Notes: a model not told the origin generated them from the sequence alone. A DNA stretch of 64,000 nucleotides from Candidatus Micrarchaeota archaeon (GCA_040754495.1 JBFMCO010000022.1:18233-82232); one strand, 5' to 3'; counted from the first letter of the stretch, positions 10,901 through 25,228 are shown. A program made the numbers and translations.

Positions 10901-13900
10901 GGCGCGTACCAGAACGGGGAGGGGAAGTGGGTCCGCCAGGAGGCGCAGCGCGGGGACGGTCCTGAAGGCATGGCTGCCATTAGCAGGATGCCAGGGTTCG
11001 CGGACTCGGAGCTCGTGAAGCACGCCATAGCGCAGGACGGGGTGAAGCCCGGCGCGAAGCCCGAGGAGCTCACCTGGAACGACTTGGTTGAGCAGGCGGT
11101 GAAGATGGGCGAGCTTCCGGACAGGCCGGAAGTCAGGCAGAACGCGTTCGCGGTGCCTATGGTGATAAACGGGAAGCCCGAAATCGTGGTCAAGGTCATG
11201 TTCGGCAAGCCGCCGGCAGACGCGCTCGAGGTGCGCTCGGTCCTGCAATCAAGGGGAATTGGCGGGCAGGTAGCCGCGGATGCAATAAACCTTTACAAGA
11301 TTTTCAATGGCGAGCAGGTGCCGCTCGAAGTCGCATCAAGATACATGGACGTCACGCTGCATGACCAGTACACGCGCATAAAGCAGGAGAAGATTGCCTC
11401 TGGGATGCCAGAGACGAAAGCCGATGCCGAGGCCCTCGTGGAGGTAGCCAAAAGCATGGCGCCCCGCGCCGGAGAGGGCGGGTTGGAAGCGGGCGGCCCG
11501 ATATCTCAGGAGGGGGTGGAGCTCCTCAGGATGGCCGAGGGGAAGCTCGACCTCGTGGAGGGGCTGACCGGGGCGGATGTCGCGAAGGCGACACTGGACT
11601 GGAGCCAGCCCAGGCTGGAGATGCTCAGGATTCTTACTGTTGAGGGAAGCCCGTACCGGGAGCGGTTCCTCGCAGCGGACCCGGCCGAGCGCGCGGTCAT
11701 CGCGGACGCGATTGCAAGGGGCGCGACACCGGAGCGCGCGTTCCTCAAGGCGGCCGAGGGCATGGTGCCTGCGGATGGCCGAAAACTGCTTGAGGTGGGA
11801 GAGCGGCTGAAGGGGCTTCCCGAAGCAGAGAGGAATCTCAGGTTAAGAGACCTTGAATCGCTGAATCCGGCCCTCGGAAGGATGCTTAAGAGGCTGGCGG
11901 ACCCTGCGACTCCGGAAACTGTGAAACAGGAGATTGCGGCCGAATGGGATTCGGCTGTTGCGGGCGCAGAGAGGCATAAGCGGGTCAATGAGGCGAGAGC
12001 GGCGCGGGACGCTGCGCAGCTTGCTGAGCAGGAGCTCGCCCTGCTGAAAGGGACGCCGGACGAGCAGGCCGCAGGACGCGTGCCGGCATGGATAGAGTCG
12101 GCCGCGAAGGCAAGGGGAAAGGACCCCGCGGCGCTCCATGAGGCGCTCGTGAAGGCATACGGAGAAGGCGGAACCGAAGGCAGGCTCAGGGTGCTTAACG
12201 AGCTGGGCGCGCTCGGCGGGATGCCTGAGGGGGTGCGCTCCACCTTCGTGCAGAACAGCCCGGAGTTCTTCGAGCTCATAGTGCGGGGCGGCCTTGAAGG
12301 CCGCGTGGCGGCGATGCCTGGATTCGAGGGCGGGATCATAGTCAATGCGGAGAAGCTCGAGGGGCTTCGCGGGGCGTACAAAATCGACGTGGAGATGCCG
12401 GACGGGTCAAAGCGCTCGCTGTTCGTGAAGGCCGAAGACCTGGTGCCGGCGCAGCTTGGAAGCGAGCTTGCCGGGGGGCATGGGCTTCTTCCGCCCGTGA
12501 TACACGCGGCCGACGGACAGGGCATGCCCTTCACCTATGATACGGGGATAAGATACACGGACCCCGTCTCAGGGCAGGAGACGGCGCACATGCAGGAGTT
12601 CGGCATAATGGAGGACGTCCATGATTATGCGACAGCCAGGCACAGCGACGTCATCATGCTTCCGGACGGCAGGAGCGCGCAGGTTACCGTGGAGAGCGTG
12701 GCGGTCGTCTCCAGGGAGGTGTTCGCGGACCCGGCGAGGATGCAGGCGATACTAGCGGACGAGCATCATCCCGCGCACAAGGTTGTCAAGGCGTTCTGGG
12801 AGCTTGCAAAAACAGAGGAGGGAAGGCAAAGGATTTTCCAGGCATGGCGGGCCTATCACGAGCTCTCGAGGAGGGCCATGCTCCTCGACCGGTTCGACAG
12901 GAACACGGTGGCAGTGCTCGTCACCACCCCGGAGGGAGAAAGCGTCCTCACGTTCCAGCCCATCGACATGGACTATGTGGCGGGAAAGATAGGCTCGGAC
13001 GGCGACCTTCGGTTCTTCAATGACGACTTCGCGTCAGCGAGCGTGGATTTTGCTACGAAGATTGCGGGGGCTGCGGGGGTTCCCGCAGAGACCGTCCTGG
13101 GAGAGATGGCGAAGGCGTACGGCTCTGACAGTGTGTTCCCGCGCGAAGCCGCGGACGAGAGGGCGGCCGCAGCGGCCTCGGTGCGCGCCACGCTGAACAA
13201 ATACGACGGCAAGCCTTTCGGGGCCGGCTACGACGTCGAGGACTACGGCAAGACGATTGGAAAGGATTACGTCGAATACGGCGGCAGGGACAGGATAGTC
13301 GGCCGGAGGGACGGCCGCGCGATTCTGCACGCCGGCGACATCACCCCGCTCGGCGAGCGGATAGGCGGGGCCGAGGCTGAGGCCGATTTCAGCAGGTTCA
13401 ATCGGGAGAAGTTCGAGAGGATGGCAAAGCCGCTCGAAGAAGCGGCTCCGCCTCCGGCAGTGGAAGCGCAGCCGCCCGCCGGAGAGAAGACTCCGCCCGG
13501 AAAGCGCGGTGCCGGCAACGTAACGCCGCCGGCAAGGCCGGGTGCGATGCGGGGCGCGCCTGCAGGCGGGCCGAGAACCGTGCCGGGCAAACGGGGGGCC
13601 GGAGGCGGGGAGCCGGTTGCAGCGCCGGGCGGAAGGAGGAAGGTGGCAATCGGAGGCGGGGAGGTGGAGCTCGAGCCTGCGCCGGAAAGGGCTCCGGAGC
13701 TCGCCGCGATGAAGATAAGCGAGGACGAGCTTTCGCAGCTCGGCGTCTCATACCAGGGCCTTTATCAGGACGGCGCAGGGAGGAGGCTGAACGTATTCGA
13801 AACGGAGGCCGGGGGGGAGAGGAGGCTTGTCGCCATCCCGGCAGACCTCAGCGGGAAGGCGATGCTCGATGCAATCGGGGCCGAGGTGCGCGCCCTGGGA

Positions 13901-16900
13901 AGGCCGACGGAACTGCCGCCGGAGCTGCGCGGCATGCCGCCGGACGTTTCGTCCCAGGTCGGGATGGACGGGGCGCCAAAGGCAAGGCTGCTCTCGTCCG
14001 AGCCCCTGGGGCGCGGCTCGAGCGCGGACGTGTATCTTGCGGAAATGGTGATTGACGGAAGGCCGACCCGCGTCGCGGTGAAGATATACAAGAACCCGGA
14101 GGGAAACGGGACGTGGCAGGAGCGGGCAGAATATTTCGCGGACGAGGTGAGGAAAGCGAAGATCCTGGGCGATGCAGGCCTCGGCCCGAAGGTGTTCGGG
14201 ATTGCCGATGCGGGCGGGAACATGGCTTTCGCGATGGAGGTCATCGAAGGCAAGCCGATGTACATAGACGAGATGGCGCCCGGGCTCCGCGCGAAATACA
14301 TCAATGAGGACACGTTCGCGCAGGTCCGGAAAATGTATGACGAGCTGATAGCCCACGGATACGAAATCGGCGATTTCGATTTCATGATATTGACCGAAGG
14401 GCCGAATGCCGGCAGGGTTGTGTTCCTGGACGCCGGGGCGCTGCGGGAGGTGCCGCGCGGCGCCCAGGGCGAGCCACGGCCAAGGTACGGCGACGGCGCG
14501 AAGAGGGCGGAGGGCGGGAGGCTTCAGGCTGAGGCCATGACCGCCATGGAATATTTCACGAAGATGGACCGCGACGAGCTTGCCGCGGTAGCCGAGGTCT
14601 CGAAGGGCCTGCTCGGACAGGGCCATGTGGATTCGGACACCATGCGCCTGCTTGCGGTAAGATGGGGGAGCCGCGAGGGAAGGGCCAGGGCGATAGGAGA
14701 GTATATCACCAGTATCGCAGGGGCCGATGAGCAGAAGGCAAAGGCCACGTTCGACGCGCTGAAACGCATCGAGGCGGAAACCGGCATACGGCTGCTGCCG
14801 GATGGCGCGAGGTTCGAGGACCTTGCAGCCAGGGCGGGGGAGGGCGAGATATCGGAGGCGGAAATCATCGCGCCGATGTCAGGGGACGATTACCATGCCG
14901 CGCTCGCAGGGATGCGCACGCAGGCAGCACGCGAAAGCGTAGCGCTCCACTTCAGCGGAAGGGGCGAAATCCCGGACGCGGCCACCTTCGAAAATGCTGC
15001 CATACTGGCCGATGAGGCGGCAGGCGCGAAGGTGCCGGAGCAGGGCCAGGCCGAGCTGTCCGTATATTATGATGGGAACGGCAGGATAATCGGCATAGCG
15101 GATAACGAGCGGCTCTTCTACGGCGACCCCAAGGCGATAAATGACAAGACGCCGGAGGCGAAGGTCAGGGTGGACCTGGAGAGCGGCAGGATAGTCTCCA
15201 TGGACGAGCGCGGCATGAAGAACCCGCTCCTTGCGGACCTGGTAGGGCTGAGGATACTTCCGGGCAAGGGAGCGGAGGGCGCAGGGCCCGGCGGAAGGGG
15301 CCCGCCACCGTTGCCCCCGATGAAAGTGCTTGACGAAGGCAGCATAGTTTCGGCTTATGCAAGCGGGACAGGGCAGGCGCAGAGGACGAGGGCCGCCCGG
15401 TCGTTCGTGATGCTCGATGGCGAGGGGCAGGGGAGGGTGATATCGGAGCTGCGCTCCCAGGGCCGCCATGAAGAGGCCAGGCATCTTACCGAGCTGCAGG
15501 CGATAGGTGGGGAAGCCGGCGCAGGCATCGAAAGGGTTTACGGAATCCCGAGGGACGAGATTATCACGATATACGCGCGGGAGCCGACAGCCCAGGGCGC
15601 GAGGAAGGCGCTCGCGGAGAGGCTCGGCATCGTCATCCTGCCTTTCGAATGGGAGCATTATCCTGCGGACAGGAGGCAGTGGGTGTCCGTCCCGTACCGG
15701 GATTTCAGGTCTTTCGAGGACGACCACTTCCTCTTCGGGCTCATTACCTCAGGGAACATGATTGACACGGTCTCGCAGATGTATCCGGGAGGGAGGATAG
15801 CCTCCATAGAATACCATAACGGGGCGATAGGCGCTTACGAGGTCGCCATCAGGACGCAAAACGGGGAGACGCGCACCGTTTTCGTGAAGAGGCAGGATTT
15901 GCGCCCGGATGCGGCCGGCTCGGACTACTCGGTCCGCTCAGGCGTCCCGGCTCCTGAGGTCATCACCAGCGCCGGAGGCAGGGAGCTTACTTACGTCGGC
16001 CCGGACGGGGAGGTCTCGCGCTACGGCATTATAACCAACATGAGGGATTTCGGGGGGATGATGAGGTTCGGGGGAGTCGAGGCGCAGGTCAGGGCTACGG
16101 ACGAGACCGCGCTGTGGGACCTCGACAGGAGCCCCCTTGCCGGCTCGCTCATGTCTCAGGACCCGCAGGTGAGGGCGAAATTCTGGGAGGAGCTCGGCTA
16201 CATGCTGGCAGGCTCTTACGCGACCGGGATATGGGACAGGCATGCGGGAAACGCGCGCGCGATGGTCCTCGAGGTGCAGAACGCGGACGCGCACACGAAC
16301 CCCGCGGACCAATCATCACCGACAGTGGGCGAGGCGCTGTCGCAGAAGGGCTACTGGGTGTGGCAGCAGGACGGAAAGACGTACATGTTCATGATAGGCG
16401 GCATAGACACCGACACCGCGGCCAACTACCTTGCCGGCGAGGCGCACGGCAGCTTCGACATGACCGGCATGAACATAAGGTACGGCTATGTCGACCTCCA
16501 CAGCCTCTTTAACAGGCTAGCGACGATAAGAGGCACGAGCGTGGATGCGCTCGTCATGGAAGCCTTCGGCGATGTCAGCGGCGGTCAGGTGCCCGGCCCG
16601 GTCGCGATGGGCATGAAGAGGTGGTGGCGCGACTTCGGGAGCGACCCGCACTATGCCGATGAGATGGCCGGCCGGTTCTCCAGCCACGAAGGCGAGAGCA
16701 TAGGCTTCGGATACCCCAGGACCGAGCAGGAGCTGGACGTGATAAGGCAGGGGGGCGTGCTCCATCAGGAGAATCCGCAGAACGGCGACCCTTACACCAT
16801 CATCGCCTTCGCTGACGGCAGGTCTCGGATGAGGCCGGAATACGAGATAGTGCACCGTGAGGACATCGAAGCCCTCGACCCGCGCATAGCCGCGATGTTC

Positions 16901-19900
16901 CCTCCAGGGAGGGACATGTACGCCGTGGAGATAACCGGCGAGGTGCGGAAGGCCGTTCCGGACATAGACAAGAGGACGAACCGCATCCGGACCTCGGACG
17001 GCAGGATGGTCGCGATAATAGACTCGGCCGACCCGCTCGCGAAAACGCTGCTCGACGGGGGAATTCCTATGGTGAAGGCGAGGCGCGACATGCCCCGGCA
17101 GGGAGAAGTTGCCGTGGATGATGCGACCGGCATAATACGGGCCGCTCCAGGGTTCGGAAAGCTGACCGGAATCCAGGCCTACCAGGCCGGCCCGGTTCCG
17201 GTTTTCCGGGCGATGATGGGGGCAGGGGAGGGGTTCATGCTCGGGCAGTTCGCGCACATCGGCCATTATATATTGGCCAAGGAAACGAGCGTGAGGGAAG
17301 CCGCGCAGGTTCCTGCCGGAGTGGTGGCCGGGGAGATAGAAGCGCCGGGAATAGAGCGCATGCCCGCCCCGGCGCAGGTGGAAGGGGTAAGGGGCGGGAT
17401 GAGGGACCTGGTAGGGGCAGTCAGGTCCGGAGACGAGGGCAGGATAAGGGCCGCGGAAGCCGAGTACGATAAGAGGCTCGGAGTGCTGGCCAGGCTAAGG
17501 CCAGATACGGAACTGAGGGTCGTGGAAAACGAGACGCTGTTCGCGGACCTGGCTCCAGGGGGGCAGGCACAAGCGAAGGTGCTCGCGGCAGACTATCTCA
17601 GGAACAGGTCCGCAGGAAAGAAGCTTGACGGCGACCTGCTCGTCATCGACTACCTCGTATCGCATGGAATGAACGCGGTGGATGCGGCTGCGGCAGTCGT
17701 GAATCTGGGGGGCGCCGGGAAGGCGCCTGCCCCTGTGACGCTTCCGCCGTACGTTGCCGAGCACTTCGGGACCAGGCAGCCTGACCCGGTCACGGCTGAA
17801 AACGCGCTGATTCTTGCCGGGGACAGGAATACGCTCGGAAGATTGGGCATACCGGACGGCCTTGGCAGGGTCCTGAAAAGCGAGGGCATGGCTGTCGTGT
17901 CCGAAGGAAAGAGGATGACCGAGGTGAGAGGCTATTACGATCTGGAGAGCGGCAGGATAATATACCTCGGCAGGACGGACGCGCCAAGGGAGGTCACGGC
18001 GGGAGGAGTGGAGTTCGTCCTCCGTTTCGACCATGAGAGCGGGAGGGTATCCATTCCGGAAAGCGAGGACGTGCCGCTTCCGGATTCGATTGCCAGGCTG
18101 AACGGAATGCGCATTGCGCCCCCGCCCCAGGCAGTGCCGTTTGGCGTTTTCGGCATTTTCATGCCACTGTTCAAGTATTTCAGGAAGCCCCCGGCAGCCG
18201 CCCCGCAACCTGAGGCCGTGCCCATCAAGGTCCCGAGGTCCAGGAACGACATCCAGGGAAGGGCCGAGGGCATAAGGGGGCTGCCCCCGGACCAGCAGGC
18301 GCAGGAGCTTGCGGGGCTGCACGATGCCGTGGCCGCCGAGCATGGCGACGTTTATGCGAGGAATTACCGCGACATGATGGAGGAGCTGGTGAAGCATCCG
18401 GAGCATTCGGGCAGGATTCTCGACGAGTGGGAGGCGGTGAGGGCCGAGGAGAAGCATTACGAGGCGCTCGAGAGGGCGAGGAGGTATGCCTTCTCGGCCG
18501 CAGAGGGGTTCGGGATTGTCAGGGGGCAGGACAGGAAGCTCATATCAGGCGGAGAGTACGCGGCGGACATGGCACGCTCGAGGGGCGAGAAGCCCAAGGC
18601 ATTCCGGAAACGGCTCCTCGAAGCGTATGATGCCGGGTTCAGGAGAGGAGGCGTGCTCGATGCGAGGCTCGGCGTGGCAAATTCGCTGGGTGTGCTCGAC
18701 AATATAGTGGTAGAGTCGCGGCCGGGCGTCTTGGACGAAAAGAGGACGATGCAGGCGAGGAAGGAATTCATCAGGAAGAACCCGGAGTTCTTCGACCTAA
18801 TCATGAGGGGCGGACTCGAGGAGGTCATCTCCGCGAACCTCGGGGCCGGCGACGTGAGAATCGCAGGAGTCTCGCACGCGGGCGGCATGGCGCGGGGCGC
18901 GTACGGCGTGGAGGTCCTCCTTCCGGACGGCAGGAGGAAGCGCGTGTTCGTGAAGCTGGAGGACCTCGGGCCTGCCGCGTTCGGGGCTGATTTGGCCAGA
19001 GTCGAGGGCATGATTGCGCCGAAAGTCTTCACTGCGGATTCGCAGGGAAGGCCGCTCTCGTATGACGTGAGCTACAAGGACCCCATCGGAAAGAGGATGG
19101 TGAGCGGCCAGAGGCGCTTTGGCATCATGCTGGATGTCCGCGACACGGTAGGGCAGAAGGCCAGGGTGAGGACCGCGGACGGGAGGTTCAGGGAGATAAC
19201 GGTCACGAGCGTGGCGCTCGTTGGCGACGACATCTTCAATGCCAGGTCGCTTGACGGGATACCCCAGCCCTCCAGGGCCGCCGCGGAGGACTTCTGGACC
19301 GCAATGGGAAGCGAGGGCGGGCGCGAGGAGATGTTCAGGACGTGGTACGCGTACCAGGAGATGTCAAGGCGGGCCACCCTCAGCGACAGGCACACCGGGA
19401 ATTCGATGTACGTCATCGGCGTGACGTCGGATGGCGAGACCGTGAGGACGTTCCAGCCCATAGACCCGGACGATATCGGAGCCAAGGTCGAGGCCAGGCC
19501 GGAGGGCATGAACTTCAGCGAGTTCAACGATTTTTCCGCGCTCTACACGTCGAATTTCGTGAACGGCCTGTACCTCGCGTCGGATAACGCCGCGAGCCTC
19601 GGCCTGCTCAAATCCCCGATCAACCGCGCGCAAGCGAGCAGGGCAGCATCGAGCGACGCCGCGATGTCAGGGTGGAGGCTTCCGGAAGACCCCGGGTGGG
19701 TGAGGTCCGCGGCTGAGTTCATAATCATGGATTACGATGGCAAGCCGTTCGGCCTCGGAACGGACATGACGATAGGCGGGCACGGCTCGTACATAAAATA
19801 CCATGCCGGCAGGAGGAGGGCGGCAGGCTACGACGGCCGCGTCCGGATGTACTCGGACGAGATGCTGGCGGTTTATCGGGGAGCGCAGGACCCTGCCAAC

Positions 19901-22471
19901 GCGGCGGATGTCGCGCGCAGGGTGGATGAGCGGATGGGCTGGGAGAACGCCGGCCACATGAGGGCGCTTGAGCGGAGGTATCCGGACCTCGGCACCCTGC
20001 CTCCGCACATGCAGGAGTACAGGGAGCCCCTCGAGCGTGCGCGCAGGCGCATAGCGGGCGGCGAGAAGCCCGATGACGTTTACCTTGACGAGTCGAAGAG
20101 GATGCTGAGGGCTAATCCCCGGGAGAGGGCGAAGGCCGAGGACATAATCACGAGGCACGGGAGGGGCGTGGCAGACGCCGAGGTGTCCGCGGTCCTGGAG
20201 TTCCAGAAGAGAAACGGCATCGCGTCTTTCGAAGATGCGGCGTATGCATTCGTGAGACAGCAGGCCGCGCCGAAACCTCCAGCGGAACCGCTGCAGCCAT
20301 CCGAAGCCATTTACCGGAAGCATGAAGCGAATATTTTCGGCCCTGCCCGGGGGCAGCTTGGCAGCGAGCTCCTTGCCAGCCTGAGGGGCGCTGAGGAGAG
20401 GATAGCCGGCATGGTGCCTGAGGGGCCGGAGAGGGAGCGCGCGCTCAAAAGATGGGGCGAGTTTGCAGACCGGGCGCTCTCGCGCATCGCCGATCTCCCG
20501 GCACCCGAGCGCGCGGACGCGCTGGCGCGCTTCATGATAGCGGGCGACTATCTCCTCACAAGGGCGGCTGAGAACCCGGCGCGCACGAAGGCATGGCTCG
20601 ATTTCATCGCCGACAACCCGAACGCCGTCGAATACGCCATGCTCGCCAAACGAGGTCTCGACATAAGGGCGCAGGACATAGTCGTGGCCGAAATCCGCCC
20701 CAGCATCCATGACATGTCTGACAGGAAAGCGCTGAAGAAGGCCCTCGGGAAGAGGGTATCGTTCATGGAGGACGTGATACGCGAGATACCGGAAAGGTGG
20801 TTCATGGAGGCGGGGGTGAGGCGCGATTATATGATGGACCTTGCAGGTTCCGACCCGCTCAGGGCGGCGGCCGAGCTCGACCGCGTCACGATGCCGCACG
20901 GAATCAGTGTTGTGAGGAAGGCAACGGGCGTGTACCTCGCAGAGGTCTCGCACACGTTCTCGCTGCATGGCCAGCCGGACATCCGGGGCCTCGTAATAAC
21001 CGGCGCTTACGGGACGGGCGACATGTTCGACGGCATGACCGCGTATTTCAATCCCCTCAGCGGCAGGATTTTCATGCGCGGGACTGCCCATTTCGCGGAG
21101 GCCGGCATACCGGAATCCGCGCTTCCGGGCATGAAGATGACGTACGTGCATGAGATGCAGCACCTGCTCGACAACGCCGGCGGGTATGTCGCGGCACTCT
21201 CGGCCAGGTCTGCAGGGCGCGGAATGGCCTTCATGCCGGAATACCGCGCCAGGCTCGAGACCACGGCGGTCGCGAGAGAGGTCCTGGAGATGGTTCCCCG
21301 GCTGGGGGGCCGCGGGACCGAGGATGCCATCAACGCAGCCATCAGGAAGGACCCGGAGGAATACAAGCAGGCTTACAGGAAGGCGCTGGACGCCATGCGC
21401 ACAGGCGAGGACGGAAGGCCCGACCCGGACTGGGCGGGCAGGCCGCCCGAGGTTCTGCAGAACCGGCTGAGGAAGCTTATAGACGACGAATACCGGAGCC
21501 TTATGCCGCTGAGCTATACCGAGCTCTACGGGCCGACAACCGCAGGGATCGTCCGCGGGGAGATCACGGTCAGGAAGCCGGCCGCCCCCGAGGCCGTTCC
21601 CTTCAAGCCCGCCGTAGCCGCGGACTCGGCTCCGGGACGCGGGGAGCCGGACCTGCTGCGCTCTGCCAAGTATGAAAATGGAATCCTGACGATAGAGGCG
21701 GATTACCTGGGAGGCGAGCTTGCACATGCGGTGAAGCCGCAATTCGCCGAATCCGCGGTGAATGGCGAGTTCATCCCTTCCGGCGACAGGACAAAGCCGA
21801 GCGGCCTGTGGCTCTCGTGGGGCTCCGGCTGGGATTACTTCACAGGGAGCAACCCCGGCCTGATGTTCAAAGGCACCGTGAAGTTCAGGGCCGAGATGAG
21901 GTCCGGATTGAAGCTCTTCCTGCTTGACGGGCGCGAATCTTTCGATAGCATGATGGCCGAATTCCGGCGGGAAGTTAAGGTCGCCGAGACAACGGGGAGC
22001 GGGTATCCGGATGGCACCTGGCCTGATAACAACTGGGTGTACTACGAGAAGAGCCCATGGCAGTGGCTTAGGGAAAGGGGCTATGACGGCGTGGCCGTGA
22101 CGGAGGAGGGATATCTGGATACCAATTTCCAGTTCGGCTGGGACGCGGCCTCCATAGTCATTTTCGAGCCTGCGGGCAATGTGCGCCTGCCTGGAGGCGA
22201 AGCCAGGCTGGAGGAGTACAGGAAGGGTGCCCAGGGCAGCGCGGACGCCATGCTGCCCCTTATTGAAGAGGCAGGCCTGCCGTTATTCGGCCCGAATAAG
22301 GCGTATGACCTCATAGAGGCGTACGCCGGCGGCAGGGCTGAGCGCAGCCCGGGAAAGCGCATCGATGCCGAGGATGAGGCTTTCCTTAAAAAGCTCCTGG
22401 ACGAGAAACCGGGCCTTGAAGAGGCTGCGAAAAGGATTATCGAATACGTTAGAAAGAGGGAAGGGGGATAG
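1946..22471 (+). CDS. Giant multidomain protein (6,841 aa). N-terminal ~1,900 aa are Ala/Glu/Lys/Arg-rich and helical-looking. It also carries an internal hydrophobic helix cluster, three PI3K/PI4K-like kinase modules, one RIO/Bud32-like kinase module, a Pro/Gly-rich linker and a C-terminal HExxH segment
   Basis: A single uninterrupted 20,526-nt ORF, which cannot occur by chance even at 65% GC. Motifs were read directly from the translation (see the sub-features below). No N-terminal signal peptide. Confidence 0.85.
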   Translation: MGQKPAERQPEVRDEGVRVAQPQVPMVPREQPRGGANEAAANAATGLGVMGKFAAVLDFIIADPSRAEGRLAEFSRRLEPYRADYPEETRIALGLFGAASRMYREAQDARAHGDTQRAQELEDSARAHFREGMAKAGSVPGMAQDIHSLAGAGASPEWIESRKAAFNDVGLGTWNRAIAIDQAVEWRVKNDAIIDAGGPAAREAEARMRDEAVRLAEGSRQGQAFSEQDYQDTMRRFSEASAPVTALAAHIHGAAALFHQAAMRQGVSEQYTKAMEDLKKEFDKLLKKLEEGTATKEDVEKAKELADAVKAAETDLEGLSGDDAVTVSGIHARGLSALRQGKGEMARVQRQLAREYAKTKDPGMRKKLERWSADLAKGKAPEAELERWLEAQRPAEFRALTTENIKRETAERAGLLREKGYERSHPRETKRIAELDREAAKALEEAKALRKRGDLDGAGKLEAKAFRLLREARAKVLWLERLDRFQARLAGIKEPPEMKKAAEEVSKALGGAFNFIGTQDGWRARLAFIAADVFIRYGKVLQSKPAAPLLKGILSIVGILSDPRKKVDEKRAQEEVGRLEPKALSAELGGLKGKVDDKAHSKLTDAVKAASGFIGTNQQWRAAYLLRGVKFFLDNREKIGTRGKLFEGIMGFLGRLADPKGEIGEEEAKREFARITGIPAEAPAQAGGRREAALTVAGLKQAGEGFEKRLRAIPGHEEQVRSITETVKLAGEEFRAGNVKKAQELLALAEKKAAALEGVVEREKRIDASGAPEEAREKLKKAGLAAFNDLGKQSGGRFDTVVKATDLFLGGMERKLWLQPGGETAALKLLDFIGRLGEGALQGLEFDSQAAESELSDISAQAGELWKAMLGASITEWLRLIEGWRTMGGLGTANAKFLDDLAESYRALQKRLEEGAKAEDIEQEASALEARAEHAKKIGEELEERERAVAVFRGDVEDFKADTAAFRASERFKKYAADAEPYVKKAEEWEEKAATFMAEAEKLEGDAKAEMIKRAADAVKRSEELLGHAGKIIGLREAGASDEVVSAYRKAANSYIAVFEPAPPGLAGEAQIFPDDVLAYAAIVFSAADSYLFFRKHGRAEAEKRAERLVLGTTFASRIADAEAELRGLDGEMEYAEAIDSDTAARKQKLMDSATELRGDKRKVPKPREGSAEWYGQMALDALERGDFAVADLAVYRGMFEKVAPGGGRNYVPEDIERDISAVLRGEKVPAAGELDRYLTLIDSASLTAQADLLKRDNPVSGSAEERERKQRVHKLAEEIKRRADAHDFAGAERLLEMATVYTGLARDKKWKAFAGADRMEAALDAELAGGDHSGEFQAAVVYQKASEETASFRASLADWGAGLAENKKLVERGLLRVEQLVSEGKTEEAGALFGQLMLYAGAVRTFAAPKKRDVIPGFDPAYDSSKLGGMGLALDALIKGEAEVGGKKPEEVFSQSFLETQREYLNKRADAYLRLSEKMPVGAETVGQGLAEVRRRAAEGDFEGALRLLEMAGNYYGEAAPGKQAGWRYRDATRKGPGYERGRQDMLNAISMEIAAKDPADHDEALETFNSGSQRISVAKAAIERYEIVERNIYNALPTAVIDEWDHHGTIALRGEPTPENEEGPVLGRVSMEKIRRYESEHPDDTALGGGLSLKTLLTKMKKAAEEGDDEAFRKYEKAFFSRLYLVAGRILRREQLEENRQEVKKYIEVLEGFTAAITIDQLVPYGWLEGDDERLKKVTALEKQLKNNEISKAEFESKLNVILSERLQMIEQNKFTDKVPGPMRETVRQLAPRAKALLERARGLYGKLEKMDNNSSEFPLEEYKQVVKDLSALTEEYQTQRKISVAYSHIDQQLQMNKSYHEAIAGEGALASDYPDAYGRAVKFLGFSNGHFKKAQELLLKGEFKQAGAEFERGINRREWALMEADPNVLFGQANTYLGNLPISMLTGVPIIPESTTAMDEVSMIKHRPGWGVLKLAARGRGEDPYKYTYGWAKQQMENDQDVNLGNPARPDYVKDPQQSWAYYNYSPITEYGADFMGYEELGGRLWNSVLEGDGRKVQRYQKQMLVMEASVFYIPVDTFIDGINSKITYKDWQKRIHFQAMYNGDLAYDELFGDWGLMDARTGAKIAEGVGMFALSIATMGLGSVGFVVGGGKMLWDAIDGIQKDLAKYGEVTTMSWVNLGLTVVGLGASAAAGRLVKASQTAIEAAKLGDAAKFTTQVARAGRFATAARVVAYTDITVNVIGMVPQFYYGIKLMAEGKYAEGTQQLAFGAFSAFMAYHGGVQQLRGMRGLKTEIAKMGALREAHAKAPEVFASLSTPEGMFSFLQRVRARDPVSLVIYDNLPKPQRILFDGMLADRNVVSALKKNDIGLARGAFDSGLETFKQLSDLGGTRALTDAAHLGTQAGLEPFMRDLLIPESATGPQRTRRDAAYARLGEMKKRPETAEAAATIETLLKDKDVQKGNETGVLKIGWAADEIRSQQMQTINRYTDSVVSGEQARLGLYSSEGEAARANAKRIGDSYLAYARARSEGKPFDWDYHAKRMGMGPEDAKKLFAKLDAVPDARTVAGVISREGVRQAVRNRVALDGRAILGDTPLTELAGEGALFSRWGELTPEDLFGMALNRRERAAEELEGAGRETDGRLAAAKRERATALSREADALDAEVKRRQAPEEVLTPDSLRSGAKEKFGRAQRLRSEGRDEEAFALESEARRSIALAADLEKFGEYGIVRATPDGQFIHRDFPDRRFTRAELDDAAILVRAIRKRGVPTDKRLLAIYDALPKEVKKDYRGGEDALMKSVLDVIYSRRGQAAEAAAPVLRSEELPVPSDPALAAVAGMTVPGTNLRWGVIPPDQVLQWQAKVYEAYKAAYGKIGLIYDSPEAMFAKNPEVLVATDGEGRIVAFTILKKTAFGTKLSLVGAVPDIPEGRAAARAMIQGFPALEGAYITAPGAPAHLAIKAGVPVVPYDSARIIQGEVPAEAGSPGAYQNGEGKWVRQEAQRGDGPEGMAAISRMPGFADSELVKHAIAQDGVKPGAKPEELTWNDLVEQAVKMGELPDRPEVRQNAFAVPMVINGKPEIVVKVMFGKPPADALEVRSVLQSRGIGGQVAADAINLYKIFNGEQVPLEVASRYMDVTLHDQYTRIKQEKIASGMPETKADAEALVEVAKSMAPRAGEGGLEAGGPISQEGVELLRMAEGKLDLVEGLTGADVAKATLDWSQPRLEMLRILTVEGSPYRERFLAADPAERAVIADAIARGATPERAFLKAAEGMVPADGRKLLEVGERLKGLPEAERNLRLRDLESLNPALGRMLKRLADPATPETVKQEIAAEWDSAVAGAERHKRVNEARAARDAAQLAEQELALLKGTPDEQAAGRVPAWIESAAKARGKDPAALHEALVKAYGEGGTEGRLRVLNELGALGGMPEGVRSTFVQNSPEFFELIVRGGLEGRVAAMPGFEGGIIVNAEKLEGLRGAYKIDVEMPDGSKRSLFVKAEDLVPAQLGSELAGGHGLLPPVIHAADGQGMPFTYDTGIRYTDPVSGQETAHMQEFGIMEDVHDYATARHSDVIMLPDGRSAQVTVESVAVVSREVFADPARMQAILADEHHPAHKVVKAFWELAKTEEGRQRIFQAWRAYHELSRRAMLLDRFDRNTVAVLVTTPEGESVLTFQPIDMDYVAGKIGSDGDLRFFNDDFASASVDFATKIAGAAGVPAETVLGEMAKAYGSDSVFPREAADERAAAAASVRATLNKYDGKPFGAGYDVEDYGKTIGKDYVEYGGRDRIVGRRDGRAILHAGDITPLGERIGGAEAEADFSRFNREKFERMAKPLEEAAPPPAVEAQPPAGEKTPPGKRGAGNVTPPARPGAMRGAPAGGPRTVPGKRGAGGGEPVAAPGGRRKVAIGGGEVELEPAPERAPELAAMKISEDELSQLGVSYQGLYQDGAGRRLNVFETEAGGERRLVAIPADLSGKAMLDAIGAEVRALGRPTELPPELRGMPPDVSSQVGMDGAPKARLLSSEPLGRGSSADVYLAEMVIDGRPTRVAVKIYKNPEGNGTWQERAEYFADEVRKAKILGDAGLGPKVFGIADAGGNMAFAMEVIEGKPMYIDEMAPGLRAKYINEDTFAQVRKMYDELIAHGYEIGDFDFMILTEGPNAGRVVFLDAGALREVPRGAQGEPRPRYGDGAKRAEGGRLQAEAMTAMEYFTKMDRDELAAVAEVSKGLLGQGHVDSDTMRLLAVRWGSREGRARAIGEYITSIAGADEQKAKATFDALKRIEAETGIRLLPDGARFEDLAARAGEGEISEAEIIAPMSGDDYHAALAGMRTQAARESVALHFSGRGEIPDAATFENAAILADEAAGAKVPEQGQAELSVYYDGNGRIIGIADNERLFYGDPKAINDKTPEAKVRVDLESGRIVSMDERGMKNPLLADLVGLRILPGKGAEGAGPGGRGPPPLPPMKVLDEGSIVSAYASGTGQAQRTRAARSFVMLDGEGQGRVISELRSQGRHEEARHLTELQAIGGEAGAGIERVYGIPRDEIITIYAREPTAQGARKALAERLGIVILPFEWEHYPADRRQWVSVPYRDFRSFEDDHFLFGLITSGNMIDTVSQMYPGGRIASIEYHNGAIGAYEVAIRTQNGETRTVFVKRQDLRPDAAGSDYSVRSGVPAPEVITSAGGRELTYVGPDGEVSRYGIITNMRDFGGMMRFGGVEAQVRATDETALWDLDRSPLAGSLMSQDPQVRAKFWEELGYMLAGSYATGIWDRHAGNARAMVLEVQNADAHTNPADQSSPTVGEALSQKGYWVWQQDGKTYMFMIGGIDTDTAANYLAGEAHGSFDMTGMNIRYGYVDLHSLFNRLATIRGTSVDALVMEAFGDVSGGQVPGPVAMGMKRWWRDFGSDPHYADEMAGRFSSHEGESIGFGYPRTEQELDVIRQGGVLHQENPQNGDPYTIIAFADGRSRMRPEYEIVHREDIEALDPRIAAMFPPGRDMYAVEITGEVRKAVPDIDKRTNRIRTSDGRMVAIIDSADPLAKTLLDGGIPMVKARRDMPRQGEVAVDDATGIIRAAPGFGKLTGIQAYQAGPVPVFRAMMGAGEGFMLGQFAHIGHYILAKETSVREAAQVPAGVVAGEIEAPGIERMPAPAQVEGVRGGMRDLVGAVRSGDEGRIRAAEAEYDKRLGVLARLRPDTELRVVENETLFADLAPGGQAQAKVLAADYLRNRSAGKKLDGDLLVIDYLVSHGMNAVDAAAAVVNLGGAGKAPAPVTLPPYVAEHFGTRQPDPVTAENALILAGDRNTLGRLGIPDGLGRVLKSEGMAVVSEGKRMTEVRGYYDLESGRIIYLGRTDAPREVTAGGVEFVLRFDHESGRVSIPESEDVPLPDSIARLNGMRIAPPPQAVPFGVFGIFMPLFKYFRKPPAAAPQPEAVPIKVPRSRNDIQGRAEGIRGLPPDQQAQELAGLHDAVAAEHGDVYARNYRDMMEELVKHPEHSGRILDEWEAVRAEEKHYEALERARRYAFSAAEGFGIVRGQDRKLISGGEYAADMARSRGEKPKAFRKRLLEAYDAGFRRGGVLDARLGVANSLGVLDNIVVESRPGVLDEKRTMQARKEFIRKNPEFFDLIMRGGLEEVISANLGAGDVRIAGVSHAGGMARGAYGVEVLLPDGRRKRVFVKLEDLGPAAFGADLARVEGMIAPKVFTADSQGRPLSYDVSYKDPIGKRMVSGQRRFGIMLDVRDTVGQKARVRTADGRFREITVTSVALVGDDIFNARSLDGIPQPSRAAAEDFWTAMGSEGGREEMFRTWYAYQEMSRRATLSDRHTGNSMYVIGVTSDGETVRTFQPIDPDDIGAKVEARPEGMNFSEFNDFSALYTSNFVNGLYLASDNAASLGLLKSPINRAQASRAASSDAAMSGWRLPEDPGWVRSAAEFIIMDYDGKPFGLGTDMTIGGHGSYIKYHAGRRRAAGYDGRVRMYSDEMLAVYRGAQDPANAADVARRVDERMGWENAGHMRALERRYPDLGTLPPHMQEYREPLERARRRIAGGEKPDDVYLDESKRMLRANPRERAKAEDIITRHGRGVADAEVSAVLEFQKRNGIASFEDAAYAFVRQQAAPKPPAEPLQPSEAIYRKHEANIFGPARGQLGSELLASLRGAEERIAGMVPEGPERERALKRWGEFADRALSRIADLPAPERADALARFMIAGDYLLTRAAENPARTKAWLDFIADNPNAVEYAMLAKRGLDIRAQDIVVAEIRPSIHDMSDRKALKKALGKRVSFMEDVIREIPERWFMEAGVRRDYMMDLAGSDPLRAAAELDRVTMPHGISVVRKATGVYLAEVSHTFSLHGQPDIRGLVITGAYGTGDMFDGMTAYFNPLSGRIFMRGTAHFAEAGIPESALPGMKMTYVHEMQHLLDNAGGYVAALSARSAGRGMAFMPEYRARLETTAVAREVLEMVPRLGGRGTEDAINAAIRKDPEEYKQAYRKALDAMRTGEDGRPDPDWAGRPPEVLQNRLRKLIDDEYRSLMPLSYTELYGPTTAGIVRGEITVRKPAAPEAVPFKPAVAADSAPGRGEPDLLRSAKYENGILTIEADYLGGELAHAVKPQFAESAVNGEFIPSGDRTKPSGLWLSWGSGWDYFTGSNPGLMFKGTVKFRAEMRSGLKLFLLDGRESFDSMMAEFRREVKVAETTGSGYPDGTWPDNNWVYYEKSPWQWLRERGYDGVAVTEEGYLDTNFQFGWDAASIVIFEPAGNVRLPGGEARLEEYRKGAQGSADAMLPLIEEAGLPLFGPNKAYDLIEAYAGGRAERSPGKRIDAEDEAFLKKLLDEKPGLEEAAKRIIEYVRKREGG
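8320..8800 (+). other. Cluster of 2-4 predicted transmembrane or amphipathic helices inside the giant ORF (about aa 2126-2286)
   Basis: Hydrophobic, Gly-rich stretches: VGMFALSIATMGLGSVGFVVGGG, TTMSWVNLGLTVVGLGASAAAG, VVAYTDITVNVIGMVPQFYYGI and LAFGAFSAFMAYHGGV. Confidence 0.5.
12260..13080 (+). other. PI3K/PI4K-like module A (about aa 3439-3712); probably degenerate because the catalytic loop reads DRFDRN instead of DRHxxN
   Basis: Has SLFVKAEDL (compare IFKxGDDLRQD), LDRFDRNTVAVLV and FQPIDMDY. Shares the ~270-aa architecture of modules B and C, beginning PEFFELIVRGGLE. Confidence 0.55.
13440..13640 (+). other. Pro/Gly/Arg-rich low-complexity linker with repeated PGKRGAG units (about aa 3832-3899)
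   Basis: PPPAVEAQPPAGEKTPPGKRGAGNVTPPARPGAMRGAPAGGPRTVPGKRGAGGGEPVAAPGGRRK. Confidence 0.6.
13990..14450 (+). other. RIO/Bud32-like (ePK-fold) kinase module (about aa 4016-4169)
   Basis: Glycine-loop-like LGRGSSADVYLA, VAIK-like RVAVKIYK, catalytic-loop-like YEIGDFDFMIL and DFG-like VVFLDAG. Confidence 0.6.
15805..16520 (+). other. PI3K/PI4K-like module C (about aa 4621-4859) with an intact catalytic loop
   Basis: TVFVKRQDLRPD, GIWDRHAGNARAMVLEV and FMIGGIDTDTAANY. Confidence 0.65.
18781..19590 (+). other. PI3K/PI4K-like module B (about aa 5613-5882) with an intact catalytic loop
   Basis: NPEFFDLIMRGGLEE, RVFVKLEDLGP, LSDRHTGNSMYVIGV and FQPIDPDD. Collinear with modules A and C. Confidence 0.65.
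21060..21330 (+). other. HExxH-containing segment near the giant-ORF C-terminus (about aa 6403); a possible metallopeptidase-like module
   Basis: MTYVHEMQHLLDNAGGY. The same HExxH-x-LD pattern occurs in ORF 577..1545. Confidence 0.4.
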
Positions 22472-22489: not shown

Positions 22490-23032
22490 TCAGGGCACGG
22501 CCTGCCCGTTTATCACGAAGCTGAATTTCTGCCTCTCCTTCTCAAGCGCCTTCACGGTTTCCAGAGAGTCCTTCAGCATGCGCAGGAAAGGCTCCCAGGA
22601 GCCGCTGCCGGAATGGATGCTGCGGATGGCCTCGGAAACGACGACCTTCCTTTTCTTGTCCACGAAAGTGCAGTAGATGCTGCTTCCCCGGCGCCTGACA
22701 TCGATGCCGTATTCCGCGAAATCCTCCTCCGGCGGAAGTGTGGCGCCGAGCGCGAGCGCGGATGCGACGGATTCTATCCCCTTCCTCGGCTCGGACGAAT
22801 AGGACTGGACGCCGACGCCGTCCTTGAGATAAAGGCTGTCCGGAATCCTGAGGAGCGGCTCCAGCTCCCGGGGCATCCCGCCGGCGATTTCCGCGAGGGT
22901 GTCCATGAGGCGCTCTTTAGTTGCGCGGTCCCGCAGGAGCGGATCTGCCAGCATCTTCTGGAACCTTTTTTCGCCTATGTCCGTTACGGTTGCTCCGGCC
23001 GTTTTCTTTTTTCTCTTTCCTGCCATCGTCAC
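22490..23032 (-). CDS. Small hypothetical protein (180 aa); member of a three-paralog set with 24133..24663 and 23029..23577
   Basis: Basic N-terminus (MTMAGKRKKKTAG). The C-terminal half aligns with 24133..24663 (YGIDVRRRGSSIYCTFVDKKRKVVV..GSWEPFL versus YGIHISSRGDNTFCTLVDRKRGVVV..GSWTGFL). Its start overlaps the upstream stop by 4 nt. Confidence 0.6.
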   Translation of the reverse strand: MTMAGKRKKKTAGATVTDIGEKRFQKMLADPLLRDRATKERLMDTLAEIAGGMPRELEPLLRIPDSLYLKDGVGVQSYSSEPRKGIESVASALALGATLPPEEDFAEYGIDVRRRGSSIYCTFVDKKRKVVVSEAIRSIHSGSGSWEPFLRMLKDSLETVKALEKERQKFSFVINGQAVP

Positions 23033-23577
23033 ACCAGGTACATGTCGCCGCAGTCGCTGACCGCTACTCTCCCCGGCTTCGCCTTCGCGGCTGCCTCGGC
23101 GGCCCTTATCGCGCCAGCGACTTCCGCCCAGTCCTTTTTTTGCGGCTTGTCCATATAGCGCATGAGCGGCTCCCTCACCATTATCCTCCGGCCCATGTCC
23201 GCGAGCACGAGATAGACTGTGCTTGTCGTCTCATAGACGGCGATGCCGTATCCCATGTCGGGCTTCCGGTCCATATGGCCGGATGAAAGGAAACGCGCCA
23301 GGACAGCGTTTATCCCGAACCCGGCGTCATCCGAAAGCGTGATTGCATTACCGGCCTCGCGCCGGTAAAGGCGCGCGGGGAGCGCAAGCGCCGCCTTGAC
23401 ATCCTCGCTCCAGTTCTGCGCGTATCCTGCAAGGCCCGAAGCGGCGTCCTCCCGCGACACGGAGGCAGGTGGCGCAGCTTCTGCAAGATGGCCTTCAGTG
23501 GCGCCGGCCTTCGCGATGAACGGCTTTTCCGGCGGAGGCAGGGGCACTGGACCGCGGGCATCCCTTTTCTTTGGCAT
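23029..23577 (-). CDS. Small hypothetical protein (182 aa); a more distant paralog in the same set
   Basis: Basic N-terminus (MPKKRDARG). Shares LPARLYR and YGIAVYETTSTVYLVLAD motifs with its neighbours. Confidence 0.5.
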   Translation of the reverse strand: MPKKRDARGPVPLPPPEKPFIAKAGATEGHLAEAAPPASVSREDAASGLAGYAQNWSEDVKAALALPARLYRREAGNAITLSDDAGFGINAVLARFLSSGHMDRKPDMGYGIAVYETTSTVYLVLADMGRRIMVREPLMRYMDKPQKKDWAEVAGAIRAAEAAAKAKPGRVAVSDCGDMYLV

Positions 23578-23609
23578 GAGTAAAACTTGCGATGAACCGT
23601 TTAAAATGG

Positions 23610-24107
23610 CTAGGTCGCCTCGATGAGCCGCCAGTAGGTGTTGTTGTCGAGGATGTTCCTCGCCTTCGCGAGGTCGGCCGGGGGAATCTGCGCCCCCGTA
23701 TCCAGCGCCTTCTTCACCGAGCGCAGGAATGCGAGGTCGGCCCGGGCGGCGGTTATGCAGCCCTGGACGATGCGTTCTATCTTGCCCTTGGCTTCCTCCC
23801 GCGACGCCTCCCCGCTTTCCAAGGATACCTCGATTTTTGACGGGTCTGCCAGGCTCCTGAAAACCACGCCGGAGCCGCCAAGCTCGTCTTTCTTCCCTCC
23901 GGCCATGCCCCGGACGAAGCTCTCGACGCCCCTCCGGAGGACGCCTGCCCCGTTCTCCAGGTCCCGCTCGAGGTATTCGATTTTGCCATCAATCCCGCGG
24001 GCAAGGCCGGCCATCTCCAGGCCCTCGCCTTTTTCCGGGGCGGCGCCTCTTGACGGGAATTTTCCTGAATCGCGCTTTTTCGGGAAGGGAATCACCTTTC
24101 TCTCCAT
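23610..24107 (-). CDS. Small hypothetical protein (165 aa) in the same operon
   Basis: Co-directional and tightly spaced with its neighbours. Basic N-terminus (PFPKKRDSGKFP). Confidence 0.45.
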   Translation of the reverse strand: MERKVIPFPKKRDSGKFPSRGAAPEKGEGLEMAGLARGIDGKIEYLERDLENGAGVLRRGVESFVRGMAGGKKDELGGSGVVFRSLADPSKIEVSLESGEASREEAKGKIERIVQGCITAARADLAFLRSVKKALDTGAQIPPADLAKARNILDNNTYWRLIEAT

Positions 24108-24132
24108 GGGGGGTTATTGGCGAATCGGGATT

Positions 24133-24663
24133 TTAAATTGAGCTAACCGAGCCTTCTTTCACAATCACGAACTCGAAGCGCCTGCCGCTGCGCCTGTAGG
24201 ACTCGGCGAGCCTGAGCGCCTGGGAGAGGCTGTCCAGGAATCCGGTCCAGGAACCGGTGCTGACGTACATGTTCTTTATGTCGTCGAACACGACTACGCC
24301 CCGCTTCCGGTCCACCAGCGTGCAGAAGGTGTTGTCGCCCCGCGAGCTGATGTGTATGCCATAATCCGGAAGGCCGGGCGGGAACCCTGAGCCCAGCATG
24401 AGCGCCCCTGCGGCTTTCGCCGCGCCTTTCTCGGCATCAGATGAGAAGGACGATTCGCCGGTGCGGTAAAGCCTGGCAGGGATTCCAAGAAGGTGGGCCT
24501 GCTCGTCGCTCATCGGGACGATTCTCCGCAGCTGTCCGATGCACTCTTCCCGCGTTACTGAATTGGCGTCGGTCATATTGCGCCTCCTCCTCCACTCCGC
24601 AAGGTCCGTCATCCCCGACTCGCGCTCCGGCGCGCCGGAGGAGCGGCCCTTCCCGCCAAGCAT
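24133..24663 (-). CDS. Small hypothetical protein (176 aa); paralog of 22490..23032
   Basis: See the alignment quoted for 22490..23032. It also shares the IPARLYR motif. Confidence 0.6.
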   Translation of the reverse strand: MLGGKGRSSGAPERESGMTDLAEWRRRRNMTDANSVTREECIGQLRRIVPMSDEQAHLLGIPARLYRTGESSFSSDAEKGAAKAAGALMLGSGFPPGLPDYGIHISSRGDNTFCTLVDRKRGVVVFDDIKNMYVSTGSWTGFLDSLSQALRLAESYRRSGRRFEFVIVKEGSVSSI

Positions 24664-24703
24664 GCCATCTAACTCTTGCGAAGATATTTTAATGGGGCAC
24701 GGA

Positions 24704-25228
24704 CTAGCGGCCCGTCCTGATTCTGTCCGCGAAGCGCTCCATGGAGCAGGATGGGTTCCCGGGGTCGCGGACCGCCATCTCCAGCTCCTTGAGCCGCAAT
24801 CCGTCGGGATGGGCGCGGTCTATGAAGCGCGCGATAATTTTTCCGCCCTCTTCATGGAGCGAGAGATACCAGTATTTCACCCACTGCGAGATGTCGCCGA
24901 GAGTCTCGCCTTCCATGCGCGGCCTCTGCCTCGACGACTTGGTGTCGCAGAGCTCGAGGCCGCCCTCGAAGCGGGAGAGCCGGACCTTCGGCGGGAACGC
25001 GAGCGCCACGTAGATGTCGAAGCCCGGCTCTGCGCCGAGCGTCCTGCAAAGCTCGGCGATGGCTTGCCGGGCCTCCACGGTCTTCCGCATGGGTATCGGC
25101 CAGCCGGGGCTCGCCTTCCCGGCACGGTCGCCTTCCGGTTTCATGGCATCCAGCTCCCGCCTGGGGGGCCGGCCTGGCTTTTCCGGCGTGTCCGTTTCGC
25201 GGGGCGGGCCGGTGATCCTTTTGACCAT
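24704..25228 (-). CDS. Small hypothetical protein (174 aa); first gene of the convergent five-gene operon
   Basis: ORF with mixed composition. An AT-rich promoter-like spacer lies upstream (higher coordinates). Confidence 0.45.
   Translation of the reverse strand: MVKRITGPPRETDTPEKPGRPPRRELDAMKPEGDRAGKASPGWPIPMRKTVEARQAIAELCRTLGAEPGFDIYVALAFPPKVRLSRFEGGLELCDTKSSRQRPRMEGETLGDISQWVKYWYLSLHEEGGKIIARFIDRAHPDGLRLKELEMAVRDPGNPSCSMERFADRIRTGR

Follow-up and report, generated by a model that had tools for sequence, protein, structure and literature searches.

A giant open reading frame encodes three kinase-like modules

The DNA analysed here is a 64,000-nucleotide stretch from a Candidatus Micrarchaeota archaeon (GCA_040754495.1, JBFMCO010000022.1:18233-82232), referred to below as the window. 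It carries an uninterrupted open reading frame (ORF) of 20.5 kb, which encodes a protein of 6,841 amino acids (aa) with three kinase-like modules, A, C and B in their order along the polypeptide. The ORF, the modules and their motifs lie as follows; types I and II are defined below.

1946..22471, plus strand: giant ORF, single reading frame, 6,841 aa, cysteine 0
11933..13423, plus strand: module A, type I kinase-like, aa 3330-3826 (BLASTP against B; family profile E=8e-163)
Module A motifs: G-loop GLRGAY; FVKAEDL at 12422-12442; DRFDRN at 12887-12904; IDMD at 12962-12973
15344..16864, plus strand: module C, type II kinase-like, aa 4467-4973 (BLASTP of the N-lobe; family profile)
Module C motifs: G-loop GAIGAY; FVKRQDL at 15881-15901; DRHAGN at 16235-16252; IDTD at 16403-16414
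18416..19936, plus strand: module B, type I kinase-like, aa 5491-5997 (family profile)
Module B motifs: G-loop ARGAY; FVKLEDL at 18947-18967; DRHTGN at 19385-19402; IDPD at 19460-19471

In residue numbers, the lysine of FVK, the catalytic loop and the IDxD motif correspond to K3495, D3648-R-F-D-R-N3653 and I-D3674-M-D3676 in module A, to K4648, D4764-R-H-A-G-N4769 and I-D4821-T-D4823 in module C, and to K5670, D5814-R-H-T-G-N5819 and I-D5840-P-D5842 in module B. A preliminary description of this DNA had reported three tandem PI3K/PI4K-type catalytic modules on the strength of these motifs. All the motifs that it quoted were found collinear, in one frame and one ORF, at the three places it named. 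Its positions were right; its boundaries were too narrow, the modules extending over the intervals listed above.

The likeness of the three modules exceeds the quoted motifs. Modules A and B align over about 500 aa with approximately 36% identity (BLASTP E=1e-38), and the N-lobe of module C matches A with E=4e-9 and B with E=1e-10. All three are full-length matches to a family profile obtained by two local profile iterations on homologues (E=8e-163, 6e-106 and 2e-138). A, B and C are true paralogues, and a six-frame scan of the window revealed no further copy. The region around module C (aa 4462-5243) is the best-conserved stretch of the protein, being about 50% identical to the relatives P0001 and P0002.

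In each module, some 100 aa of helical N-terminal extension precede the bilobal kinase core, and a C-terminal subdomain of about 130 aa follows it. The subdomain carries the near-invariant motifs hDGxPxGxG and DGR after the kinase core (for instance at 19730-19760 and 19835-19845 of the window), and two Gly as well as a Gly-Arg pair are conserved at 90% or more in a 30-sequence alignment. We know of no counterpart of these motifs in PI3K or other protein-kinase-like (PKL) kinases, and they may make up a substrate or regulatory site that is particular to the family. The distance from the catalytic Asn to IDxD is 20 residues in modules A and B and 51 in module C. Because of this 51-residue spacer, which represents an insertion, MAFFT left the IDxD of module C unaligned, and it was placed by an alignment based on hidden Markov models instead.

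The modules belong to a family so far seen only in Micrarchaeota giants

Scans of the whole giant protein against Pfam, NCBIfam, PHROGs and PADLOC left the three modules unmatched (Pfam and NCBIfam at E<=1). With the PI3K/PI4K profile PF00454, neither the three window chunks nor 30 diverse members of the family yielded a match at E<=1. No kinase was matched among PDB sequences by phmmer with single modules or by a profile search with the 30-member family profile, and the CotH profile did not match the modules either. A HipA_2 match (E 0.32) at aa 6245-6290 was taken to be noise. A HipA-like identity of the modules was rejected, with no profile or structural support; the HipA loop reads D-x-H-x-x-N.

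A k-mer-indexed homologue search returned no relative with module B and P0015 alone with the family alignment. Since this search was nearly empty, an exhaustive one was needed, and 1.84 billion representatives were searched by HMMER with a profile made from A, B and the N-lobe of C. It yielded 81 proteins at E<=1e-3, of which 66 reached E<=1e-10 and 45 reached E<=1e-30. The relatives are mostly 3,000-7,300 aa long with one to three modules each, and all those with a named organism are hypothetical proteins from metagenome-assembled genomes (MAGs) of Candidatus Micrarchaeota or Micrarchaeia. A genome scan found two loci; a Micrarchaeota MAG has the first and an unclassified archaeon the second. 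No relatives were recovered from viral contigs or by two scans of JGI metagenome contigs. So far, giant "hypothetical" proteins of Candidatus Micrarchaeota are the only place where the family has been seen, and the literature searched held no description of these giant proteins.

Two of the relatives, P0006 (MEW6035948.1, 6,652 aa) and P0008 (MEW6035941.1, 6,147 aa), are encoded by a single 47-kb contig from one Micrarchaeota MAG, so the family can be multi-copy within a genome.

Near-invariant active-site residues and two subtypes

Conservation was counted over 104 aligned domain instances, with the following results.

G of GAY: 99/100
K of FVK: 91/101
D of EDL: 73/101
D of DRx: 103/104
R of DRx: 86/104
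His at the "His" position: 46/104 (44%)
N of DRxxxN: 103/104
IDxD: first D 104/104, second D 99/104

The five residues K, D, N, D and D are kept together in 80 of these instances. The modules fall into two subtypes. Type I, to which A and B belong, reads DR[F/H/Y/R]xRN...QPIDxD with a spacer of 15-26 residues between Asn and IDxD (19-26 in nearly all; one has 44). Type II, represented by C, has a longer spacer, 38-67 residues, and reads D[R/G]HxxN...GxIDTD. The subtypes also differ at the position after D-R: among 67 type I modules it is occupied by Phe in 18, His in 13, Arg in 12, Tyr in 11 and Ala in 5, whereas 33 of the 37 type II modules (89%) have His.

This distribution bears on module A, which had been called a probable pseudokinase on account of its DRFDRN loop. 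The call is not supported: His is not conserved in the family, Phe being the commonest residue at this position in type I, and module A retains all invariant residues (the GLRGAY loop, K3495, D3648, N3653, D3674 and D3676). The first modules of related giants likewise read DRF or DRY (P0001, P0004-P0008, P0010, P0013 and P0016-P0018), so that DRFDRN is the normal state of the subtype. Judged by its residues, module A appears to be a normal type I module and not a decayed copy. Because type II keeps the His and type I has Phe, Tyr or Arg, the family offers a natural experiment on the His of the "DRH" motif.

The arrangement of the two subtypes was compared in 41 relatives that are 3,000 aa or longer, some of which may be truncated by contig ends.

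I only: 17/41
I-II: 8/41
II only: 7/41
I-I: 4/41
II-I: 2/41
I-II-I (the window protein): 1/41
I-I-II: 1/41
I-II-II: 1/41

Three modules are thus rare (3/41 giants), and the pairing of a type I with a type II module is the commonest multi-module layout. The phospho-relay or substrate-trapping arrangement that the preliminary description read into the three copies would be a hypothesis at this stage.

The predicted fold is protein-kinase-like and nearest to PI3K/PI4K/PIKK

The core of module B (aa 5612-5975) was modelled by AlphaFold2 with a 30-sequence family alignment, giving a mean predicted local distance difference test score (pLDDT) of 92.9 and a predicted TM-score (pTM) of 0.91. In the model, two N-terminal helices are followed by β1, the G-loop, β2, β3 ending in the Lys, a helix (αC) and β4/5. 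After a hinge come an inserted hairpin, a long helix (αE), the catalytic loop, a β-hairpin ending in IDxD and a helical C-terminal part. The predicted topology is protein-kinase-like: the model combines a bilobal fold with a β3 Lys, a catalytic-loop D...N and a metal-binding Asp after a β-hairpin. In place of the metal-binding DFG motif, the modules have I-D-x-D.

PI3K/PI4K/PIKK catalytic domains came out as the best matches of three independent structure searches. The top 45 Foldseek matches in the PDB are all PI3K or PIKK structures, including Vps34, ATM, DNA-PKcs, PI3KC2α and PI3Kγ (E 6e-5 to 1e-3, probability at most 0.97), with low global TM-scores of about 0.25. In BFVD, the top match and three of the top five are PI3K/PI4K proteins of giant viruses (best E 1.2e-5). 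Structure prediction had been suggested earlier as a check on the kinase assignment, and AlphaFold2 and Foldseek together bear out a kinase fold for module B with PI3K/PI4K/PIKK as its nearest neighbours. On the modelled structure, this group would be the nearest known branch of the fold by a modest margin.

The family was also aligned with a profile of class I PI3K kinase domains annotated PF00454 (120 retrieved, 98 sequences in the profile). The hhalign score was 26.4-27.7 (P 0.008-0.012). The control scores were 15.0 ± 2.7 for 60 column shuffles (maximum 21.2; 0/60 reached the real score) and 13.9 for the reversed profile. The alignment places FVK on IFK, EDL on DDLRQD, FGIMxDV on the hinge motif GMIEVV, and DRHxxN on DRHxxN. 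The FVK[x][E/Q]DL motif, present in all three modules, therein aligns to the strand-helix junction of the IFKxGDDLRQD type.

The modules are probably active phosphotransferases

We consider it probable, though well short of assured, that the modules represent a new PKL domain family of Micrarchaeota giants, present in the window protein as three paralogous copies that are most likely active ATP-dependent phosphotransferases. By analogy with PI3K, eukaryotic protein kinase (ePK) and APH-type kinases, ATP would be held by the G-x-x-G-A-Y loop together with the FVK lysine, the Asp of D-R-x-x-x-N would act as the catalytic base, and the Asn together with the two Asp of I-D-x-D would bind Mg2+. Modules A, B and C are all predicted to bind ATP-Mg and to transfer phosphate, because each of them keeps every family-invariant residue; the substrate might be a protein, a lipid or a small molecule. 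That K, D, N, D and D are conserved among paralogues sharing 20-35% identity speaks for a functional nucleotide/metal site, and such a site would most simply imply phosphotransfer.

Several observations weigh against this reading. The case for phosphotransfer is drawn entirely from residue conservation and the fold, and searches of Pfam, NCBIfam and PDB sequences tie the family to no kinase family. The variable "His" position could mean a different mechanism, or nucleotide binding alone, in type I. The hhalign probability against PI3K is low (3.5%), and the family scores 23.5 (P 0.016) against a RIO/ePK-like domain of the same protein, described below, so that PI3K does no better. Since hhalign fails to separate the PI3K profile from the RIO-like one, no sequence-level membership in PI3K is claimed; the signal at this level points to PKL relatedness, not to PI3K specifically.

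The modules are unlikely to be very divergent members of the PI3K/PI4K/PIKK lineage, working as lipid-headgroup kinases (on inositol lipids, for instance) or PIKK-like protein kinases with module A as a His-less regulatory pseudokinase. Known members of that lineage (PF00454; p110α 4ykn, Vps34 2x6f, PI4KIIIβ 4wae, mTOR, ATM/Tel1, DNA-PKcs) do supply the top structural matches in the PDB and BFVD, and they share with the modules the N-terminal helices before β1, a Lys strand followed by acidic-Leu (FVKxEDL in the modules, IFKxGDDLRQD in PI3K), the in-register D-R-H-x-x-N loop of modules B and C, whose His most type II modules keep, and an embedding in very large proteins after helical regions. 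However, the modules are only about 11-15% identical to them, lack a PF00454 match, have IDxD for DFG, and carry a Gly-rich G-x-x-G-A-Y loop that is ePK-like and not PI3K-like. Their C-terminal subdomain consists of hDGxPxGxG, DGR and small β-hairpins, whereas PI3K has helices kα7-12, and they are archaeal (DPANN) and occur in several copies per polypeptide. The His is not conserved in type I, whose first modules are usually DRF or DRY, and module A keeps all the invariant residues. Phosphoinositide signalling, to our knowledge, is not known in archaea, which also counts against this lineage. The original PI3K/PI4K assignment therefore stands for the nearest fold and for the motif register, and falls for membership. 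A comparable D-x-x-x-x-N loop is found in CotH (5jda), APH/amicoumacin kinase, choline-kinase-type enzymes, actin-fragmin kinase, Bud32 and RIO, and a metal-binding motif of the I-D-x-[D/E/G] type, resembling the IDxD of the modules, occurs in APH and choline kinases. The modules differ from these families in giving no profile match and in their N- and C-terminal elaborations, and none of the families is known in the form of repeated modules within giants.

A kinase-like fold that does not transfer phosphate, serving as a nucleotide-binding scaffold (the whole family then being pseudokinases) or catalysing AMPylation (SelO-like), glutamylation or amide-bond ligation (NIS-synthetase-like), also seems to us an improbable account. 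It would suit the highly variable residue after D-R in type I, the 24 of 104 instances in which one or more of K, D, N, D and D are missing or not aligned, and the conserved hDGxPxGxG and DGR motifs without counterpart in known kinases. It fits poorly with the catalytic-loop Asp, the Asn and the metal-binding Asp, a phosphotransfer signature present in 103-104 of 104 instances, and with closest structural neighbours that are bona fide kinases; SelO-type AMPylases are not known to have the catalytic-loop Asp in its canonical position. That the motifs are fortuitous, lying in low-complexity or repeat sequence of a mis-assembled or non-coding ORF, we regard as practically negligible. The missing database family and the empty first k-mer-indexed search could have suggested it, but it is refuted by the 20.5-kb uninterrupted ORF, the paralogy at E=1e-38, the 81 relatives (which include proteins of 6,000-7,300 aa in independent MAGs), the near-invariant catalytic residues and the confident model.

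As the modules escape Pfam, NCBIfam and PDB sequence searches and all relatives found are unannotated hypothetical proteins, the predicted ATP-dependent phosphotransfer gives a first functional handle on this giant family. The modules would also add a structurally PI3K-like archaeal branch to the protein-kinase-like superfamily.

Further domains of the giant protein and a possible effector role

Outside the three modules, the giant protein contains an N-terminal region, helical and about 2,100 aa long, and the following features.

8318..8890, plus strand: hydrophobic Gly/Ala-rich helical segments, aa ~2125-2315 (Kyte-Doolittle scan)
13973..14755, plus strand: putative fourth, small RIO/ePK-like domain, aa ~4010-4270, between A and C
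20474..21568, plus strand: conserved C-terminal HExxH domain, aa 6177-6541, with HEMQH at nt 21149-21163

Besides aa 309-688, the regions shared with other giants are module A including the helical extension upstream of it, module C with about 270 further residues, and module B. A hydrophobic cluster comparable to that of the window protein occurs at aa ~1,700-2,400 in most related giants, its sequence not being conserved by BLAST; this central region, upstream of the enzymatic part, is possibly membrane-inserting. The RIO/ePK-like domain has the motifs LGRGSSADVY, VAVK, GDFDF (with no Asn at +5) and LDAG. Its N-lobe (aa 4017-4103) matches PADLOC PD-T4-6 with E=4.8e-4, and weak PDB matches were obtained to Rio1 (E 0.086) and StkP (E 0.1). 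The AlphaFold2 model of the domain (pLDDT 85) shows a kinase-like order of β1-3, αC, β4-5, αD-E and β. The domain is kept in seven related giants with DAG conserved, and its motifs make it a better pseudokinase candidate than module A. The HExxH domain has no Pfam or PDB sequence match. HE[LMFS]QH..D is present in 8 of 10 aligned copies (from the window protein and eight relatives), and the domain is a putative zincin-type metallopeptidase.

The giant protein is free of cysteine (0/6,841), and the Cys content is 0.08% in 43 related giants and 1.18% in 17 other ORFs of the window. A very large polypeptide that is strongly depleted in Cys, has a hydrophobic centre and combines several enzymatic domains is reminiscent of exported multi-domain toxins and effectors. 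The helical N-terminus, the hydrophobic region, the several enzymatic domains and the near-absence of Cys suggest, by this analogy, that the host protein of the modules might be a membrane-inserting or exported multi-enzyme effector of a host-dependent archaeon. Against export, neither a recognisable signal peptide nor a gene for a secretion system was identified. With bacterial effectors of cryptic kinase fold (Legionella LepB, MavQ and LegK, Shigella OspG, NleH) and with large multi-enzyme toxins such as MARTX and the large clostridial toxins, no homology of the modules was seen beyond the PKL fold. Moreover, no secretion system, receptor-binding domain or autoprocessing domain was identified here, and delivery into a host cell is purely what we infer. 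The giants take up a strikingly large share of the coding capacity of the genome-reduced, host-dependent Micrarchaeota. Should these giants be effectors aimed at a host, their kinase modules would be the first candidates for enzymatic effectors in DPANN-host interaction.

Small ORFs and other genes of the window

Downstream of the giant gene lies a group of small genes on the opposite strand.

22490..25228, minus strand: five small ORFs of 165-182 aa, convergent with the giant gene

Three or more of the small ORFs are paralogues; those at 22490-23032 and 24133-24663 share 34-36% identity (E 1e-20 to 8e-24). Relatives of the small ORFs (E 1e-19 to 7e-31) adjoin the homologous giant gene in a Micrarchaeota MAG (L001, 16499-17922), where they again directly follow the giant gene and run in the opposite orientation. 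They have no Pfam match and could be a partner, chaperone or immunity set. A more far-reaching scenario, which we hold to be improbable, would take the modules as DPANN-specific, deep-branching relatives of PI3K/PI4K/PIKK, present in one to three copies (pairs of type I and type II) within cysteine-free, membrane-inserting giants. Micrarchaeota would deliver these giants to their Thermoplasmatales hosts, or present them where the cells touch, and the modules would phosphorylate host targets, making the giants an archaeal counterpart of the bacterial multi-enzyme effector toxins, with the small ORFs as cognate chaperones or immunity proteins.

The other genes of the window include one for a formyltransferase-domain protein (PF00551), a GT2 glycosyltransferase gene, a tRNA-Gly gene and the following.

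31778-36658, minus strand: PolD DP2 large subunit with a LAGLIDADG intein

Because it carries PolD, a tRNA gene and the formyltransferase-domain gene, the window is archaeal and chromosomal, and a viral or plasmid origin was rejected. The PolD DP2 intein region coincides with a local drop in GC content, which falls to 0.51 at 32-34 kb. Over 1946-22000, the giant gene has a strongly and uniformly purine-rich coding strand, with a GC skew of +0.13 to +0.20 and an AT skew of +0.12 to +0.28, and the purine excess ends abruptly where the giant gene ends.

Three weak internal repeats were also seen in the giant protein: aa 164-301 with 785-923 (E 9e-5; window 2436-2848 and 4299-4714), aa 1279-1375 with 1493-1594 (E 7e-4; window 5780-6070 and 6422-6727), and aa 4332-4439 with 5270-5392 (E 7e-4; window 14939-15262 and 17753-18121). 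All three pairs lie outside the kinase modules, and the members of the last pair precede module starts, at distances of 28 aa from C and 99 aa from B.

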